Positions 3,400 through 41,200 of a DNA stretch of 64,000 bases are shown here, piece by piece. The DNA lies in assembly GCF_030684315.1 (NCBI RefSeq), contig NC_081379.1:30147947-30211946 (forward strand), read 5' to 3'. The position numbers and the translations under genes were made by a program. The stretch is from Stegostoma tigrinum (Eukaryota). The notes beneath the pieces were generated by a model. The model saw only the letters and a program-made list of their open reading frames with translations, did not search any database and had not been told where the DNA came from. How positions within the stretch are numbered: the stretch's first letter is position 1; every line of letters starts with the position of its first letter.

Positions 3400-6200
3400 G
3401 TCCAGGAACGGGGACGATGAGTATGGAAAGGGAGATTGGTTGAAGAGGGACTGCTCACGAAGGAGAAGTGAGGAAGGATTTTGGGGGGTGGGGGAGGATG
3501 TTGGGCATTGTAGGGGTTGGGAATTTGGGGAGGATGTGTTGTGGGGGGATTGGGGTGGCTGTGGGATGGGCTGGTAGGGGAGGATGTGTGCTGGCGGATA
3601 GGGGAGGATGTGGGATGAGGGAAATGTGTGTGTGTGTGAGAGGGAGAATGTGTGTGAAGGGGGGGGCGAATGTGTGGGGGTGGGGGTAAAATTTTTGTAT
3701 GTGGGATTGGGGGGAAGAATGTGTGTGTGTAGGGGGGAGAATGTGTGTGCAATGGGGGGGTGAGAATGTGTGTGTGGGGGGGAATGTGTGTGGAGGGGGG
3801 GGGAACGTGTGTGTGGGGAGGAATGTGAATATGTGGGGCAGGGGAATGTGTGTGCTCTGTGTGTGTGTGTGTGTTGGGGGGAAAATGTGTGTGTGGGGAG
3901 AGGCTGTTAGTGGGGTGGAGGAGAAGGGGACGATGTTGGTGGGATAGGGTGGGGTGGGGGGCTGCAGGGCAGGGTGTTGGTGGGGTAGCGTAGGGTGGGT
4001 TGGGGTGTGGTGAGGGTGTTGGTGGGGTGGGGGAGCGGGGAGGATCTTGGTGTGGCAGGGGTGCAGGGTAGGATGTTGGGTGGCGTGGGGTGGGGGCTGC
4101 AGGGGAGGATCTTGGTGGGGTGGGGGGCGGGGAGGCAGGAGAGAATGTTTGGCAGGGTAGGGAGGATGTTGGTTGCAGTGGGGTGGGGTACAGTGGGGCA
4201 GCAGGGGAGGATGTTGGCTGGGGTGAGGATGGAGGGGCAAATGTGGAGTTGTGTTGGGTGGGGTGGGATTGGGTTAGGTGGGGTGAGGGGCCAGGAGAGG
4301 ATGTTGGGTAGGAGCAGGGGAGAATGTGGGGCAGGGGAGGATGTTGGGCATGTAGGGGGTTAGAGGGAAGTGGGATAGGGGTTGGAGGATGTAGGGAGGA
4401 TGGGGTGAAGGAACCGGGAAGATGTTGGGTGGGGCGGGGTGAATGGACAGGGTAGGATGTTGGGCGGGGTGGGGTGGGTGGACAGGGGAAGATGTTGAGT
4501 TGAGGGTGAGGGTGTTGTAGGGGGACAGACAATGTTTTGGGGGTGTTGACAGGGTAGGGCGGGCGAGGATGTTGCAAGGGCTTAGGGGGCGGGGGTGGTA
4601 GATGTGTGTGGGGGCTGGGGGCAGGTCGGGATCAAGGAGAGCGCAGGGGTTTGGGGTCGAGAATGTTGCGGGGGCAGAGGAGGATGGGGGGGGTGAGGAT
4701 GTTGCAGGGGTGTAGTATGGGGCACGGGTCATAGAGGGGATGGGGCGTAGAATAGATGGGGTGGTAGAGGATGTAGCAGAGGGTAGAGCGGGACGAGAAT
4801 GTTGCAGGTGGTGGGGCAGGGTAGGCTGGGCTGGGAGCGAGGATGTTGAGAGGCAGATTAGGGGGGAGGGGTATGATGTGGGGTGAGGAGGAAGATGTGG
4901 GGGGACTGGGAGGATGTAGCGGGTGAGGGTGTCGGGGGGGATGGAGGGGTCGGGGTCAGGTAGAGGGGGAATGTAGGGTGGGCGACAATGTTGCGGTGGG
5001 GTTGGAGAGGGATGAGCAGTGAGGATATTGCGGGGGCGTCGAAAGGGGCTCGGGGAGGTGAAGAGTGGATGGGGCATAGAGTGGGACAGAGGGCAAGGAC
5101 GTTGCAGAAGGTAGAGGGGGCAGGAGGATGTTGTGGGGAGTGGGGGTGGGGCAGACTGGGCTGGGTTAGGAGCAAGGATGTGAGGGGCAGGATGTGGGGG
5201 GAGGGGACAATGTGGAGAGAGGGGGAAGATGTGGGGGGAGGTGGAGGATGTGGGGTGAGCGGGGATGTCGAGGGGGAGAGGATGTAGAGGGCAGAATGTG
5301 GGGGGAGAGGATGTAATAGGGGAGGATGTGAGGGGAGAGGATGTAGAGGGTAAGGGTGTAGCGGGGGAGGATGTAGAGAGGTGAAGGATGTTGGGGGAGG
5401 GATTTGTGGGTGGGAGGAAGGATTTTGGGGGGTGGGGGTGGAGGGGTTGGGGCAGGGGATGGGGATAGGGTTGGCGCAGGAAGGATGTTGGGGGCGGGGT
5501 AGGGGGGTGAGGATTATGGATGTTGGTGGGGTGGGGAGGATGCGGGGGAGAGAGGATGTGGAGGGAGGGAGAGAATGTGGGCAGGGGACCAGATGTGATT
5601 GGAGCGGGTGTGGGGTGTGCGCAAGGATGTTGGGGGGGGCACGAGGATGTGGAGGGCTTGGGGGGAGAGGATGTAGAGGGGTGAATGTGTGGGGGGGAGA
5701 GGATGTAGAGGGGTGAATGTGTGGGGGAGAGAGTGTAGGGGAGAGGATGTAGAGGGGGAGAGTGTGGCAGGAGGGGATGTGGAGGAGGAGGATGTGGTGG
5801 GGTGAAGAGGATGTTGGGTGGGAGAGGATGTGAGGTGAGGATGTTGGCGGCTAGGGGTGGGGATGGAGGATGTGGAGGTGTTGTGATTGAGGGGGGGAGG
5901 ATGTGGGGTGCAGGGGTGGGGGAGGAGAATGTGGGTGGGGAGGAAGGATGTGGGGGATGGAGCATGTCGAGTGTGGGGGATGTTGGGGGCGTGGTGGTGT
6001 GGGGGGAGGATGGTTTGTTGGTTGGGGGATGTTAGTGTGGGGGGGAGGAGGTGATGGGGTTTGGGGGATCAAGGATGTTGGGGGGGTGGGAGGGAGGATG
6101 TTGGTTGAGGGGGAAGATGTTGGTAGTGGTGTGGGGGAGGAGAGATGTGAGGGGTTAGGGGTGGGGGAGAAGAATGTTGGTGGGGGGAGGGTAGGTGGTT
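3400..6200. repeat. G-rich degenerate tandem array (core GGAGGATGT plus G-runs; GT-rich sub-block about 3620-3900)
   Basis: Dozens of gaggatgt(t/a/g)gggg units; plus strand is almost free of C. Confidence 0.9.
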
Positions 6201-6205
6201 GACAG

Positions 6206-6262
6206 ACCCTGACCCTAACGCTGACCCTGACTCTGACCTTGACCTGACCAGGTCATGTGATC
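6206..6262 (+). promoter_or_regulatory. PLBD2 proximal promoter: TGACCy hexamer array and M-box/CLEAR-like site
   Basis: ccctgaccctaacgctgaccctgactctgaccttgacctgaccaggtca, with GTCATGTGAT at 6252-6261 ending 13 bp before the ATG. Confidence 0.55.
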
Positions 6263-6274
6263 GTGGCCGGGGAC

Positions 6275-6498
6275 ATGGCGGCGGCCCGGGGCCTGACGGA
6301 GGTTCCCTTTCGGGAGATGGTCCGAGCCCGGAGCCTGGACTTTCTCCTCTTCCTGCTCCTGATGCTGGGCTGCGCGGCCTCCCAGGAGCTGTTCCGCTCG
6401 GTTTTACAGGAGAAGAACGGGCGGCTCCAGGTGGTCCCGGGGCTGCGGCCCGATGGTATTGCGTGGGCCAACTTCACCGACAGGATCAAGAGCAGCGG
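6275..6498 (+). CDS. PLBD2: PLBD2 exon 1
   Basis: MAAARG...LLFLLLMLGCAASQ...DGIAWANFTDRIKSSG; donor gg|gtgggt. A second in-frame ATG at 6317 is an alternative start. Confidence 0.9.
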
Positions 6499-9400
6499 GT
6501 GGGTGGGGTGGGGTGGGGCGGGGCGGGTTTTGGGTGGGAGTAAGGGGGAGGTAAGTGGGGAAAGGGGGCGTACGGGTGGTTGGCTGAGAGGAGAGGGAGG
6601 GGTTTGGAGAAGGGAATCCATCCGGGAGGGGTTAGAGACACCCCATCCCACAGAGGGAGGGGTCAGAGACACCCCATCCCACAGAGGGAGGGGTTCAGTG
6701 CAGTAGGAGACGGGGATCAAACAGAAATAGGTGGTTTTGAGTCACACTGGGGTTGGTGGGGTCAAAGTGGGGAAGGTGAGAATGGGACGTGCCACAAACC
6801 AAGATCAATGAAATAAACCAGGGGATGTGGTCTCCAGGGCCTGGAAAAACCATGGCTACAGCAATAACTGGGGACCATCTGTTGATGGGTGATTTGGAAA
6901 CCGGGTGCTTGTCGAGTCATTAGTGTAACTCACTGGGGTTTGAAAAGGAACTGGAGGTCGTGGTTGTGCAGGGAAGAGACGTGGAGTTAATGGGCAGCAC
7001 AGTGGCTGAGAACTGCTGCCTCACAGTGTCAGGCACCTGGGTTTGATTCCACCCTTGGGCGATCATCTGTGTGGAGTTTGCACATTCTCCCTGAGTCGGC
7101 ATGGGTTTCCTCTCAGGTGCTTTGATTTCCCCCCACAGTCCAAAGCTTTGCAGGCTAGGTGGATTGACCACGTTAAGTTGCCCATAATGACCAGAGACGT
7201 GCAGGCAAGATGGATTAGCTATGGGAAATGGAGAGTGTAGGGCTAGTGTAGGAGGTGTGTCTCTGGGTGAAATGTTATTGGAATAGTCAGTGTGGACTTG
7301 ATGCACTGAGTGGTCTGTTTGCATACTGTAGGGTTTCTGTGGTAATGGAGATTGAGCATGGTGTAACCAAAGCACAGGCTTGGAAGGTGGGAGGGGACGG
7401 ATAATGGAAAATAAGACCCTACTAGGAAGGATTTACCAGGACCTGGGATGATTGGAAGGGGGAGCAGAGGCAGAGTAATCAGGGAGAGGTGTGTAAAGGA
7501 GGTTAAATGAGAGATGAGTAATGGGTAACAATCGGGGGATAAGAGACATGAAGCAAGTGACATGTTAACGGGAGTTGCCCCATGACCTGATGCTTGGGGA
7601 GGGTTACAGGTATTGCTGAGCTTGCCCTGATGACGCAATGCCCTGTTGACTCTAATTGTGTATGTTTAGATTTAAACTTTAAGCCAATTTGTAAATAATA
7701 AGATAATAACCCACATCTCTAAACAATAATAATAAAATGTGAGGCTGGATGAACACAGCAGGCCAAGCAGCATCTCAGGAGCACAAAAGCTGACGTTTCG
7801 GGCCTAGACCCTTCATCAGAGAGGGGGATGGGGGGAGGGAACTGGAATAAATAGGGAGAGAGGGGGAGGCGGACCGAAGATGGAGAGCAAAGAAGATAGG
7901 TGGAGAGGGTGTAGGTGGGGAGGTAGGGAGGGGATAGGTCAGTCCAGGGAAGACGGACAGGTCAAGGAGGTGGGATGAGGTTAGTAGGTAGCTGGGGGTG
8001 CGGCTGGGGGTGGGAGGAAGGGATGGGTGAGAGGAAGAACCGGTTAGGGAGGCAGAGACAGGTTGGAACTCTCTAAACAATAATACTTTGTCTTGTAATG
8101 AAAAACAACAACAAATATAATTTCTTCTCAAAGAACTTTACATTGTCAGCTTCAGTCATTTAGATGAATGCTAAACATTCCTGGTACTATTTGAAGATGG
8201 GCAATTCTTTTAGCAGACTGTTTTCTCTTCACTGTAATTAAAACATTGAATATATAATTGTTATTCTGAATGCCACTTCTCAGATGTTGCTGATGTAGAA
8301 TGGCTGTATGATTGCTGACACTACTTCAGAATTAATTTGCTGTGAAATACCTCAGATTTTGGCATCATGCGAGTATTGTTTTATTTTAAAAATGGCACTA
8401 ATATTTCACGGATAACAAGGTGTAGAGCTGGATGAACACAGCAAGCCAAGCAGCATTAGGAGCAGCAGGTCCTGCTCCTCTGTGGTGCTTGGTCTGCAGT
8501 GTTCATCCAGCTCTACACCTTGTTATCTCAGATTATCCAGCATCTGCAGTTCCCACTGTCACTAATATTTCACAGTTGAGTCAGAATTTACTGGAGAAGA
8601 AGTTGAAAGGAATGTGGTAGTTCCAATTGCCTTGCCAATTACTACATGAGATGAAGTAACATCACTTAAAGTATGATCAACAATTGCATTTAGAAAGTGC
8701 TGGTAGTGTAATAAAATGTCCGATGACACTTCACAAGCATTCATCAAACAAACTTTGCCGCTGATCCAAATAAGATTTGGATGGATGACGAGAAATGTTG
8801 TTAAATGGATGGGTTTTAAGGAGCATTGTAAAGGTGCAGAGAAATTGAATTTGGTTTAGAAGGGGAATTAGAAGGGCAACTCACAGCAAAGCCACCTGTG
8901 ATGAAACAATCAAAATTACAGGTGTAAAACTGCAGAATTGTTAAGTGGCTGTGGATTTGAAGGAGGTCACAGAGATAAGGTGAGGTGAGACAGTGAAGAG
9001 ATTTGGGGTATTGATTGATTTATTGTTGTCATATGTACCAAAATATACTGTAAAGTGTTGTGTTTTGTGCTCTGCAGTCAGATCGCACCATTCAAAGTGC
9101 ATCAGGGTAGCAGAATACAATATTACAGCCACAGAGAAGGTGCAGAGAGAGAGAACATAATTAACATTTGAGGGGTCATATCAAACGTCTGACAACAGCA
9201 GAGAAGTTATTCTTGAATCTATTCATACGTGCATTCAAACTTCTATGTCTTCCCGACAAAGGAGGTTGGAAAAGAGCATAACCAGGATGGGAGGGGTCGT
9301 TGATTATGTTGATTGCTTTCTCAAAGCAGTGGGAAGTAGTAGATGGATAGAAGGCTGGTTTGTGTCATGGACTTGGCTATGTTCACTACTGCAGTTTCTT

Positions 9401-33400: not shown

Positions 33401-36400
33401 GCAACTTCAGTAACTTCCAGTTTAAAGGCTGCTGCATACTTTTTGTTTTTTTCTACGGGGCATTTTTACACAAAATGAAGAAATTTCAAAACCTCAACTG
33501 GGTATATGACTGTATTCCACAAGTGCCACAGGAGAACTGAGCTCAGCTGAGCTGCACATAAGGGGAGGCTGTCACCTGACTCTGACCTGATGCATCTTAA
33601 ATTTTTGTGCCAAATTGGTGTGAATTGTACATCAGAGCACATAGCATGAGAAGAGAAATTATTTCCTCATTGTAACATTTAGGGTCTGGATCATCCTTTG
33701 GCTCACAAATGTTGATCTGTTATCTGTGAAGAACTAGGAGCCAGCTTTTACAAGATATGAAAAATTCCAGATTTTTTGGCCAAAAATAGGTGTTGGCTTT
33801 TACACAAGATCGACTTTTACTCAAATATATACAGAATGTGTAATTGGTTGAAATATTCACATCACTAATGTTCTTGTCACAATTATTTGTATTCACATAC
33901 CCAGGTTATATTTGCACTGGCGTTTTACATCAGTAGGAATTTTCTTAATGGCCTATGATTGACTGAGATATTCCATGATACAAGTTGGCACTGTATTGGT
34001 GCATCACTTCAGAGTGCTAGAATAATAGCTAATACAAACAGATTCCTCATTACCCGGAATTTGTTTCTTTGCCCACATTGGTTTGAATTTTGCCCTTACT
34101 GGGGAACACTACTGCAGGCTGAATCGGCTTGGATTGTTTTATTTAGAACAGAGAATGCTAAGCAGACCTGATTGAAGTATATAAGATTGTGAGGGGATGG
34201 GGGGTATGCACAGGGTGGATAGAAAGCAACTGTTCCCCTCAGTTGAAAGATCAGTAATGAGGGAACATAATTTTAAGTTGAAGGGCAGGAGATTTTGAGG
34301 GGATTTGAGGAAACACTTTTTCACATAGGATGATGAGAATCTGGAATGCAGTGCCTGGTAAGGTCGTAGAGGCAGGAAACCTCAACTTTTAAAATGTGCA
34401 TGGATGAGCACTCGACACGTCATAACATTCAAGGCTATGGGCCAAGTAATGGAAAGTTGGGGAAATCAAAGGAAATGTTGCCCCTGGTTCATTGGTGCTC
34501 TGAATTGACCAGAACAATGACAGAGAAATTAAGATACTTATCTGCCTGTGTGCTGCAATGCTAAGTGACCTAGGAAGACCCATAGGAGCAGAAAAGTGGG
34601 TAACATTCTATAAGTAAATATTTTTACTGAACGAAATTGAAGTTTTTATTTTTGATAACTACTATTCATACTTTTTTAAACCTTCCATTTCTGTAGATAT
34701 TTTGAAGAGATTTTTAATGCCAGTGGTAAAACAGCCCTCGTTGAGGAATTTGGAGACTGGTTCAGTTACGATAAGACTCCTCGAGCCCTGATATTCCGTC
34801 GAAATCAGACTTTAGTTACAGACATGAATTCAATGATTAAATTAATGAGGTACATGGAGCTACATCAGTCAGGATAAAGGTTCCACATTGTGTTGATCTT
34901 TTAAACTAGTAAACATGGTGAGGCTCAGCTAAATTGTAGGACATTACACTAACATAAAGGATTTGGATAAACCTCAGAGTATATTGATTTTTAAATTCTG
35001 TTATTTGCCTGAAACAGAGTCCTAACTAACAAGTGAGTACTTTTTTGTGCATTTTAAGAAATCAGACAAGATGATCCCATTTGAATTACTAGATTCTATT
35101 TTAGAATAAAATAATGAGATCACCTCTTGAAAAGACACGATTTATGTTAATAGCCCTGGTCTGAAATAAGCTTTTACAAGCAAAACGTATATCAAATTTA
35201 TCTTGGATTTATTCACAATATTATGTACATTTTACTGTGAAAATATGTACTGATGCTATTAAGCTCATGAGGTTTTAAAATACGTTCTATTAATTTCCAT
35301 TAGTCAGCACCCTCATTGTGTTTATTATCGTACAAAAATATGCTCAAATATTGGACTTATTAGCTAACATAAAATTCAGAGCTTATTTTAATGCCAGACA
35401 CACACAACTCTTTAGTTTCTTGAATTTGAGCACCATGTGTTCAGATAAAGGTGTCAACTGGGAGCTGATTGAAATGACTAATTTTATAACATTTACAAGC
35501 CAAACGATTAAGACTCAGAAAGAGGTGACATTTTCCTTTCGTGGATTGGAACTGCCACATCAAATTAATTATTTGTGAGAGAAATCAAAACTACCAGCCA
35601 TAGTTATAAACTGGTTGATAATAAATCCAATTGGTGTTCAGGAAATACTACTTTACGTATTGTGATTAGCAGGTGGAACTTAGTCCCAAATGAAATGACT
35701 GAGGCAAATACCATAGCTGTACTCAAAAGAAATAATAATTATGCAAGGGTAAATGGAATCAAAGGTTGTGCTAATTAGATCGAGTAAAGTGAGAAGAACA
35801 CCATGTGGACCATAAATACTGGCAATGACCAGTTTGACCGAATAGTCTGTTTCATAGAACATAGAACATTACAGCACAGTACAGGCCCTTTGTCCCTCGA
35901 TGTTGTGCCGACCTGCCATACCAATCTGAAGCCCATCTAACCTACACTATTCCATGTACATCCATATGCTTGTCCAATGCCGACTTAAATGTACTTAAAG
36001 TTGGCGAATCTACTACAGTTGCAGGCAAAGCGTTCCATATCTTACTACTCTCTGAGTAAAGAAACTACCTCTGACATCTGTCCTATATCTTTCACCCCTC
36101 ATTTTAAAGGTATGCCCCCTCGTGCTCGCCATCACCATCCTAGGAAAAAGGCTATCCCTATCCACCCTATCTAAGCCACTGATTATCTTATATGTCTCAA
36201 GTCACCTCTCAACCTTCTCTCTAACGAAAACAGCCTCAAGTCCCTCAGCCTTTCCTCGTAAGACCTTCCCTCCATACCAGGCAACATCCTAGTAAATCTC
36301 CTCTGCATCCTTTCCAAAGCTTCCACATCCTTCTTATAATGCGGTGACCAGAACTGTACGCAATACTCCAAGTGCGGCCGCACCAGAGTTTTGTACAGCT

Positions 36401-38184
36401 TCACCATAACCTCTTGGTTCCGGAACTCGATCCCTCTATTAATAAAAGCTAAAATACTGTATGCCTTCTTAACAGCCCTGTCAACCTGGGTTGCAACTTG
36501 CAAGGATCTGTGTACATGGACACCGAGATCTCTCTGCTCATCTACACTACCAAGAATCTTACCATTAGCCCAGTGCTTTGCATTCCGGTTTCTCCTACCA
36601 AAGTGCATTACCTCACACTTGTCTGCATTAAACTCCATTTGCCATCTCTCAGCCCAGCTCTGCAGCTTATCTATATCTCTCTGTAACCTACAACATCCTT
36701 CGTCACTATCCACAACTCCACCGACCTCAGTGTCATCTGCAAATTTACTAACCCATCCTTCTACGCCCTCATCCAGGTCATTTATAAAAATGACAAAGAG
36801 CAGTGGACCCAACACCGACCCTTGCAGTACACCAATAGTAACTGGACTCCAGGATGAACATTTCCCATCAACCACCACCCTCTGTCTTCTTTCAGCAAGC
36901 CAATTTCTGATCCAAACTGCTATATCTCCCACAATCCCATTCCTCCGCATTTTGTACAATAGCCTACTGTGGGAAACCTTATCGAAAGCCTTGCTGAAAT
37001 CCACATACACCACATCAACCGATTTACTCTCATCTACCTGTTTGGTCACCTTTTCAAAGAACTCAATAAGGTTTGTGAGGCACGACCTACCCTTCACAAA
37101 ACCGTGCTGACTATCCCTAATCAAATTATTCTTTTCTAGATGATTATAAATCCTATCTCTTATCACCTTTTCCAACACTTTACTAACAACTGAAGTAAGG
37201 CTCACTGGTCTATAATTACCAGGGTTGACTCTACTCCCCTTCTTGAACAGGGGAACCACATTTGCTATCCTCCCATCTTCTGGCACTATTCCTGTAGACA
37301 ATGACGAGTTAAAGATCAATGCCAAAGGCTCGGCAATCTCCTCCCTGGCTTCCCAGAGGATCCTAGGATAAATCCCATCCGGCCCAGGGGACTTATCTAT
37401 TTTCACACTCTGTAGGATTTCTAATACCTCTTCCTTATGAACCTCAATCCCACCTAGTCTAGTAGCTTGTATCTCAGTATTCTCCTCGACAACATTGTCG
37501 TTTTCTAGAGTGAATACTGTCGAAAAATAGTCATTTAGTGCTTCCCCTATCTCCTCTGACTCCACACACAACTTCCCACTATTATCCTTGATTGTCCCTA
37601 ATCTTACTCCCGTCATTCTTTTATTCCTTAAATACCTACAGAAAGCCTTGGGGTTTACCCTGAACCTATCCGCCAACAACTTCTCATGTCTGCTTCTGGC
37701 TCTTCTGAGCTCTTTCTTTAGGTCTTTCCTGGCTACCTTGTAACCCTCAAGCGCCCTATTTGAGTCTTCACATCTCATCATAACATAAGCCTTCTTCTTC
37801 CTCTTGACCAGAGATTCCACTTCCTTCGTAAACCACCGCTCCAGTGCTCTACAGCTTCCTCCCTGACTGACAGGTACATACTTATCTAGGACACACAGGA
37901 GCTTTTCCTTGAATAAGCTCCACATTTCTAATGTGCACATCCCCTGCAATTGCCTCCCCCATCCCATGTTCCCTAAATCTTGCCTAATCTCATCGTAATT
38001 GCCTTTCCCCCAGCTATAACTCTTGCCCAGTGGTATATACCTATCCCTTTCCATCATTAAAGTAAACATAACAGAATTGTGATCGCTATCACCAAAGTGG
38101 TCACCTACTTCCAAATCTAACACCTGGCCGGGCTCATTACCCAGTACCAAATTTAATGTTGGCCTGTCTACATAGTCATTTAGT

Positions 38185-38215
<31 letters not shown>

Positions 38216-41200
38216 ACGAGTTTTTTTCGGCACGTGTCAGGAATCCCTCCTGCACACACTGATCCACCGCTAAGAGTTGTACGAGTTTTTTTCAGCACGT
38301 GTCAGGAATCCCTCCTGCACACACTGGACAAAAACTGACCCATCTATAGTACTCGAACTGTAGTGCTCCCAGTCAATATTTGGAAAGTTGAAGTCCCCCA
38401 TGACAACTACCCTGTCTCTCTCACTCCTATCGAGAATCATCTTTGCTATCCTTTCTTCTACATATCTGGAACTATTCGGAAGCCTATAGAAAACTCCCAA
38501 TAGGGTGACCTCTCCTTTCCTGTTTCTAACCTCAGCCCATACTACCTCAGTTGACGAGTCCCCAAACATCCTTTCTGCAACTGTAATACTGTCCTTGACC
38601 AACAATGCCACACCTCCCCCTCTTTTACCATCTTCTCTCTTCTTACTAAAACATCTAAATCCCGGAATCTGCAACAACCATTCCTGTCCCTGCTCTATCC
38701 GTGTCTCCGAAATGGCCACAACATCGAAGTCCCAGGTACCAACCCATGCTGCTCGTTCACCCACCTTATTTCGGATGCTCCTGGCGTTGAAGTAGACACA
38801 CTTCAAACCAACTTCTTGCTTGCCGGTGCCATCTTGCGTCCCTGAAACTTTATTTCGGACCTCCCTACTCTCAACCTTTTCTATACTCGAACTACAATTT
38901 TGGTTCCCATCCCCCTGCTGAATTAGTTTAAACCCACCCAAATAGCCTTAGCGAATTTCCCCCCCAGGATATCGGTACCCCTCTGATTCAGGTGAAGACC
39001 ATCCTGCTTGTAGAGGTCCCACCTACCCCAGAAAGAGCCCCAATTATCCAAGAATCCAAAACCCTCCCTCCTGCACCATCCCTGTAGCCACACGTTCAAC
39101 TCCTCTCTCTCCCTATTCCTCGCCTCACTAGCACATGGCACGGGTTTCTGTGCTGTAAATTCTTTATAGCTATTTATATGAAGAATACTTCTCAATTTAC
39201 AGGATTCCACTTCGAGAACACTACAGTTTGAAGCAGAACATTTTGTATTCAGTCTATTCCTGTTCTGCTTTTTTTTATTCTCCTGTTCAGACATTTCATA
39301 TTTGGGACCTATGCCACTGTAATGGCAACAGCAAACTTCTTTGATCCACCTGTATGACTACAAAGGACTGTGACCTTTTTTGGTTTGCATTCCTCCTAAT
39401 TTAGAACAAAAAGTAAGAACATTTAGAAAAGTGGTATTTATAATTTTTGAGGCGCATCAGCTTACCTTGCTGGGTGATAGGATTTACTGAAATGAGGATA
39501 TGGGCACAAAATTAGACACAGTTTGAGGTTCTGTTTGATTTATTTCACTGTTAATTCATAGGATATTGACTTTAAAACCTTAATGCACCATGATTATGCA
39601 TTTTAATTTTCAGGTTCTTATTGATTTCATGTCATCGAGCATAATGCCTTTTCCTTCTGGTTAAAAATAATGTTCTTTAACAGAAAATGTAAGATTTAAT
39701 TATGACCATTTGTTAAATGAGGGAAATAATATGAGGTTATTGACTTGCTCGCTGAGTTGGCTTGTTCTTGTTTAGACGTTTTGTCACCATGCTATCTTCA
39801 GTGGACCCTCCGAGGAAGCAATGTTATTCTTGAAATCCACTTGAAATTTACACTGTCTGGTCCGTTGTGGTCAGTAGCGTCATTTCTGGTTTTGATCTGT
39901 ACAGGTTTGTATATGGGATCCAATTCTATATTTTCCCTACAGACGGTTAGCATACTAGCCATCAGAATATAAAAATATCAACTAGCAGCAAAACAGTATG
40001 AGGAGCGGTCCTTAATATCGGTACACTCAGACAATGAAGGCCATCAGTTTATCTGGGACAAGGTAACTATAGTAGCCCAAGCCAAACATTGACACACACG
40101 GGAATTCCTAGAGGCATGGTTCTCCACCTGTGATGCAGTCAACAAACATATGGAATTGGACCCCATATACAAACCCATACAGATCAAAACTGGAAATGTC
40201 AGTACTCACCATAACGGACCAGACAGTATAAATTCCAAGCGGAATAGAGTAACATCGGTTCACCTGAGGCTCCAATGATGATGTCACCTAGCATGGTGAC
40301 AAAACATCTGAACAAGAACAAGCCAGCTTGGCCAGCAAGTCAACAACTTCACCCACAGTTGGAACTACAGATCTTTGCCAAAACTTTAAAGGAAATAATA
40401 TTTCAAGCAAATAGTAGGGACTTCTAACTGCTTTTACAGAGTGCAGTACTAAAAGGAATAAACTCTATTCCAACAGGAGAGAACGTTTGCAGAACCAAAT
40501 ATACTGTTTACAAACTTTGCTGTTTCTTTGCTGGCTAAGCATGCTGCCAATTCTTTCCTTTCCTGGATCTTAAATTTAGTACTCTGCTTCCATCATTCTC
40601 CAATTCTTTGACTGACAGACATTAATCACAAATAACCTAATTATTACATCTTGGTTTTATCTGCCCCTCTTGGCACCTACCCAATCTAATTTGAAAAAAA
40701 AGCAAACATTTTTATTTAATGTTTTAAAATGTTGCAAAGCTCTCTATAGCCAATGAAATACTTGTGAAGTGTGGTTATTGCTGCAGTGTAGGAATTGTGC
40801 TGAAAATCTTCAAGTTTCAGTTTCCATTCGGAAGGCTTTTGCTTGCTTGTAGCTTTTATAACATATTCAATATTAAGTGTTCATGTTTTCACTTTTCCGG
40901 TTAATTAATTAGTTTGTATTTGTCAGGTATAATAACTTTAAGAACGACCCTCTTTCTGAATGTGTGCAATGCAATCCTAAATACAACGGTGAGAATACAA
41001 TTTCTGCTAGATCTGATCTAAATCCAGCCAATGGAACTTACCCATTTTCAGCATTAGGACAGCGTTCATATGGTGGTACAGACATGAAGGTGAGATTTTT
41101 TTTAGTTACATTGTCCAGCACAAAGTATTATGTGGGAACAGCATCTGAATGGGAGATCCTTTAAAACTTTGGATGTGACTTTTCATAGGAACAGCAGAAA

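Follow-up and report, generated by a model that had tools for sequence, protein, structure and literature searches.

Patches of sequence copied from another site have been described in several systems, which are summarized here from the available portions of the cited sources. Class 2 templated sequence insertion polymorphisms (TSIPs) are patches at DNA breaks that lack a target duplication and show microdeletion and microhomology (PMC5110952); the string 'ribosom' does not occur in the available main text of that source. Insertions made by polymerase theta are templated within roughly 20 bp, and more distant short matches are more often due to chance (PMC11541566). Direct-repeat templated insertions are known to create new microhomology (PMC7165422). 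Template switching during LINE retrotransposition produces chimeras, including U6/L1, 28S/L1, and tripartite fungal and mouse forms (PMC4476161, PMC2104539, bioRxiv 10.1101/2025.02.02.635956); neither 5.8S nor CR1 is mentioned in the available text of the last of these. In yeast, complex distant templated insertions at induced breaks are built from multiple fragments with 0-4-nt microhomology, have rDNA as a donor class of its own, and are mostly inverted (PMC11724301). A published capture of 5.8S or ITS1 of the form described below was not found in a targeted search of a limited literature collection.

The capture lies in a retrotransposon copy within the window, by which we mean the whole 64-kb stretch of DNA analysed. 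The window belongs to contig C34 of a vertebrate assembly, and its repeats seem to be of the type seen in sharks or rays. The host copy is a 5'-truncated, CR1-like non-LTR retrotransposon on the minus strand (35853-39144) comprising the end of ORF1, ORF2, and a 3' UTR with a short-repeat tail; its ends, including the 3' end at about 35853, were placed by sibling alignments. We take the element to belong to the CR1 clade, whose features we assume to be an AP-type endonuclease with a reverse transcriptase (RT), an ORF1 esterase and a short-repeat tail. The copy matches this list in its endonuclease (Pfam Exo_endo_phos, E 1e-12), its RT (RVT_1, E 1.5e-34) and its tail, the esterase match (Lipase_GDSL_2, E 1.9e-05) being below the cut-off. 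At the truncation point, 39144, the upstream sequence continues in most siblings that cover the position. The insertion site is the end of an older repeat on the opposite strand. When the element ends were compared they were found to have only 3-4 bases in common, with no clear target-site duplication beyond these, and sequence resembling the empty site is contiguous at three other loci and once within the window. Sibling L042 shares the truncation point of the host copy and is likewise preceded by such a repeat end. Two other family matches (L074 and L075, contig C1, at about 3.87 Mb), one of them short, lie on opposite strands 2.5 kb apart, possibly through an inverted rearrangement within one copy. 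Away from the element, positions 3500-6700 of the window form a long tract of low complexity, rich in G and made up of degenerate tandem repeats with short units.

ORF2 of the host copy is split into two frames (38270-38947 and 36183-38204). An earlier note on the window had reported that ORF2 is interrupted by about 59 nt of foreign sequence with the 5' end of 5.8S rRNA as its core and a likeness to the end of ITS1 upstream, and this description is borne out. The foreign sequence is 59 nt long (38233-38175, minus strand); 49 nt of it are of rDNA origin, or 51 when the bases shared with the element are counted, so that the captured rDNA piece spans 38185-38235 on the minus strand. It consists of the last 22 nt of ITS1 and the first 29 nt or so of 5.8S, with no substitutions, and it meets the element through a 2-nt microhomology at 38235-38234. 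For the 5.8S part, the match to the Rfam model begins at 38213 and covers model positions 1 to about 29 with an E-value of 0.0011; its score of 22.2 bits is below the gathering score of 42, and at the gathering threshold the whole 64-kb window has no Rfam match. In the 3.2-Gb assembly, where rDNA is abundant, 167 sites match the core exactly, and among the matches listed the first is this locus while the other 99 are on small contigs with array-like spacing. The 22 nt upstream of the core are identical to the genome's own ITS1 end in 29/29 rDNA units read, except that 4 nt of the donor's A-run are missing from the captured piece. The donor unit was checked with Rfam, which placed 18S, 5.8S and 28S in it; a fold of the donor junction added nothing to the argument. 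Because the captured piece covers the end of ITS1 as well as 5.8S, its donor is either pre-rRNA or rDNA, rather than mature 5.8S, as the earlier note had argued. The donor arrays sit on other contigs and remain intact, and the sense of the captured rDNA is that of the host element. To judge from the 4-nt difference, the captured ITS1 end may preserve an older state of the rDNA spacer.

The insert had been traced to pre-rRNA or rDNA. This holds for the rDNA part, but the last 10 nt (38175-38184, minus strand) repeat 37539-37530 of the same element in direct orientation, a second donor that had been missed. Together with three shared bases (38174-38172), this filler forms a 13-nt exact match to 37539-37527, a template site on the minus strand 645 nt downstream. 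Shuffled fillers match the element on either strand in 0.6% of 200,000 trials as 10-mers, and in 0.01% when the three shared bases are included. rDNA was rejected as the source of the filler, which is absent from 20 kb of the rDNA unit. Between the rDNA and the filler there is no exact microhomology. The filler resembles polymerase theta insertions in that it is AT-rich, that its 10 nt are copied directly from flanking DNA, and that it creates a new 3-nt microhomology, with 2-3-nt microhomologies at other joints (PMC7165422, PMC11541566, in the available text); it falls among inserts of 3-30 nt that are identical to flanking DNA and have a resolving microhomology, by which such events are recognized. 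It differs in that its template is 645 nt away, not about 20 bp, and in that some 50 nt of the patch came from another chromosome.

At 37530 the template site has a rare C, which recurs in the filler. Among exact 24-mer matches genome-wide, the base at this position is C in 7 (the host copy included), A in 1,627 and T in 3; a looser pattern gave 14 C-carriers. In two sets of siblings covering the site, C was found in 0/28 and 0/27. The 13 C-carriers other than the host copy share with it 0-3 of up to 61 rare variants, the same range as in 59 unselected copies. A tree of the region 36700-38150 was built from 57 rows, those with at least 300 gaps being left out; its tips nearest to the host copy have A at 37530, as do all four copies nearest to it at 48 non-CpG lineage sites (L048, L040, L076 and L091). 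The private changes of the host copy appear neutral (15 synonymous and 39 non-synonymous, pN/pS 0.92, about 2.2%), which implies that most of them arose after insertion. In our judgement the C at 37530 is very probably one of these post-insertion changes. Since the filler carries the copy's own rare C, since the other carriers form no clade with the copy, and since its private changes are neutral, it is likely that this copy served as template for the patch at a time when it was already in place and had mutated.

The C was also considered as a marker of a source lineage, with 6 and then 13 carriers, and found no support apart from one relative, L070. This copy has the C and belongs to the same sub-lineage, being the fifth nearest of 67 copies at non-CpG sites and the fourth of 61 at all informative sites. 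It shares 9/64 rare sites with the host copy, or 2/56 at the strictest threshold. Given L070, there may have been a small C-bearing source lineage; the change at 37530 replaces E with D, which an active source could tolerate. Such a source is needed if the patch was made at insertion by the element's own RT, switching repeatedly from the element RNA to the site 645 nt 3', to pre-rRNA, and back, with the duplication described below arising later. We consider this unlikely. L070 speaks for it, as does the common sense of all the pieces. LINE RT double switches (PMC2104539) and sense 28S/LINE-1 chimeras (bioRxiv 10.1101/2025.02.02.635956) have also been reported in the available parts of the literature, and the present locus is like the known chimeras in having host RNA sequence in sense with a 5'-truncated LINE (PMC4476161, PMC2104539, bioRxiv 10.1101/2025.02.02.635956). 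However, at least three jumps and a separate 15-nt deletion would be required, no C-bearing source was found among the 13 other C-carriers, and RNA copied at insertion would most likely have been without the copy's private C. The private changes, moreover, are neutral. In the chimeras of those three sources, as far as their available text goes, the foreign RNA is at the 5' end, a defining feature, whereas the foreign piece here is internal: on its 5' side the element extends for about another 900 nt, as far as 39144, and on the other side the LINE resumes 2 nt on. Nor do the known chimeras contain a private base of the genomic copy, show microhomologies, or have element ends with only 3-4 nt in common; no microhomology was found at the switch sites in PMC2104539, whereas most joints here have it. 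The earlier note had put forward a double RT switch and named RNA-templated break repair as the alternative. Break repair has gained ground, and the double switch is disfavoured by the private base in the filler. The same-sense orientation, to which the note had appealed, is on its own a coin toss.

The junction was compared with 59 sibling loci (29 + 30), of which 45 (27 + 18) could be parsed; at the other 14 the site was uncovered or both anchors were unmatched. None of the 45 has an insert. The spacing of the anchors is 41 nt in 44 of them and 39 nt in the remaining one, and relative to these siblings the host copy has lost 2 nt of element at the insertion point. The codons that had been reported as missing just downstream correspond to a 15-nt in-frame deletion, evident from the sibling junctions, whose joint is at 38160/38159 (within 38157-38160, minus strand), about 15 nt past the filler, with a 3-nt microhomology. 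Indels of at least 10 nt are found in 20/59 siblings (25 events in 135 kb aligned). The probability that a deletion of at least 10 nt falls this near the patch by chance is about 0.7% (calculated with 24 events), so the 15-nt deletion likely belongs to the same event as the patch. A microhomology of at least 2 nt is present at 3/4 independent joints, for which the chance is about 1.3%. Further private deletions of 4, 3 and 1 nt are found in the host copy at about 36200-36218 (the end of ORF2) and at 36041 (in the 3' UTR).

The 65-bp tandem duplication reported at 38195-38259 and 38260-38324 is present as described, the units (minus strand) differing at one base (38229 vs 38294). The first continues into the rest of the rDNA piece. 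The second comprises an element part and 41 nt of rDNA, has a 2-nt microhomology at the joint, and carries a CpG-type change (38294). In agreement with the order proposed earlier, the duplication came after the patch, because the junction, the gap in the A-run and one private base (38309, recurring at 38244) are found in both units. CpG decay, at 9/62 family CpG sites in the host copy vs 0/6 and 1/4 in the two rDNA pieces, involves too few sites for dating. The net change in the host ORF2 is +107 nt, and the frame is broken.

These features bear on two further explanations. The patch could have arrived ready-made by retrotransposition as one unit, having formed in a source element or as part of a ligated RNA chimera, since a 5'-truncated copy can, as a matter of general knowledge, carry internal features of its source. 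The earlier note had suggested looking for other copies with the same junction, and genome-wide there are none beyond this locus: the junction pattern occurs twice in the 3.2-Gb assembly, both times in the tandem pair, which largely refutes a source-borne patch there. The ITS1/5.8S pattern with one mismatch allowed is likewise confined to this locus on contigs numbered lower than C192, in a listing of the first 100 of 168 matches, and a source with this patch would have had a broken ORF2. We regard such an origin as most improbable. It is also very unlikely that the junction, which was read from the assembly, is an assembly or library chimera of the repeat with rDNA, even though rDNA is abundant enough (167 core matches) to enter such artefacts. 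Both units have the same 4-nt gap relative to 29/29 rDNA units, one has acquired a CpG-type change, and the host copy's private base recurs in the filler. In a comparison covering 35450-38182, a contig from run X2 matches 35450-35875, from the 3' flank into the first bases of the element tail, with 0 differences, but this run may be the assembly's own source. Two further runs, X10 and X11, cover the 3' flank at low depth.

Taken as a whole, the sequence points to break repair: the scar probably arose by germline repair of a double-strand break with templated insertion, after the element had inserted and begun to mutate. The order of events would be insertion, private mutations, a break near 38234/38174, the patch with the two deletions, the 65-bp duplication, and the CpG-type change at 38294. 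One broken end would have been extended by copying 10 nt from the template site of the filler, 645 nt away, as well as about 50 nt from the ITS1/5.8S junction. The extended end would then have been joined to the other through 2-3-nt microhomologies, presumably by alternative end joining or microhomology-mediated template switching. In one geometry, the left end would prime on rDNA and then on the resected right end, creating the new 3-nt microhomology, and all templates would be DNA. In another, the right end would prime on sense templates, which could be RNA, namely a transcript of the locus followed by pre-rRNA. Both geometries fit the sequence equally, and it does not separate them. Several observations weigh against break repair. 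Both captured pieces are in the element sense, as RT switching predicts, the joint between rDNA and filler is without exact microhomology, and the relative L070 carries the C. The filler template, moreover, is 645 nt off, far outside the 20-bp window of polymerase theta, and for this reason the repair enzyme is left unnamed.

Among described systems, the scar is like class 2 TSIPs in being a short germline patch from a distant, intact donor, without target duplication or poly(A), and with microdeletion and microhomology at the joints (PMC5110952, available text). Unlike them, it has two donors (rDNA and the same element), a 15-nt deletion nearby and a later duplication, and it is non-human. 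With the complex insertions of yeast it shares a multi-fragment patch with short microhomology and an rDNA donor, but both of its pieces are direct, whereas the yeast insertions are mostly inverted and their breaks were induced (PMC11724301, available text). The scar is thus a one-off, single-copy event of a known kind. It is likely to be without function, because the copy already lacked its 5' end and the patch breaks ORF2. Being neutral, single-copy and confined to a dead repeat, it has little importance alone, and its value is that of a worked example. The private base in the filler would date the patch after insertion, so foreign RNA sequence in a LINE, even in the same sense, need not signify an RT template switch. 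The same private-base test could sort such cases genome-wide.

rDNA capture is recurrent in this genome. With one 28S probe, four dispersed rDNA pieces of 2,061, 360, 557 and 435 nt were found on large contigs (among the 100 listed of 173 matches), none of them flanked by target duplications or lying next to a copy of the host element, which is a point for break repair. The capture, which the earlier note had called unusual for being internal, is thus not very unusual here. A spacer probe, searched as an exact match only, had no match on contigs below C192 among the 100 listed of 661. The contrast between the probes, four dispersed matches vs none among those listed, is a further point for RT switching and leans weakly toward transcribed or RNA donors; spacers change fast, so that old captures would be missed. 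We also offer as a tentative reading, and on balance a doubtful one, that the patch was made by serial jumps on sense RNA (the copy's own transcript, then unprocessed pre-rRNA) during germline RNA-templated repair or retrotransposition in a non-mammalian vertebrate, and that the four 28S pieces arose by the same route. Two of the dispersed pieces are from 28S and 98-99% identical (L117:1485-1844, 360 nt, and L119:1490-1924, 435 nt); their endpoints differ by no more than 5 nt and lie some 80 nt short of the end of 28S, which may be chance, as the probe site forces them to reach that far. The 557-nt piece (L118:1170-1726, contig C13) contains the 28S end and 109 nt beyond. It is flanked by two arms of a common repeat, each 85 nt long, which are inverted and 100% identical; the 5' joint has about 6 shared nt. 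The longest piece (L116:485-2545, contig C2; 2,061 nt, 96% identical) runs from 28S into the spacer repeats, extending 921 nt past the 28S end, and fits either a DNA donor or read-through RNA.
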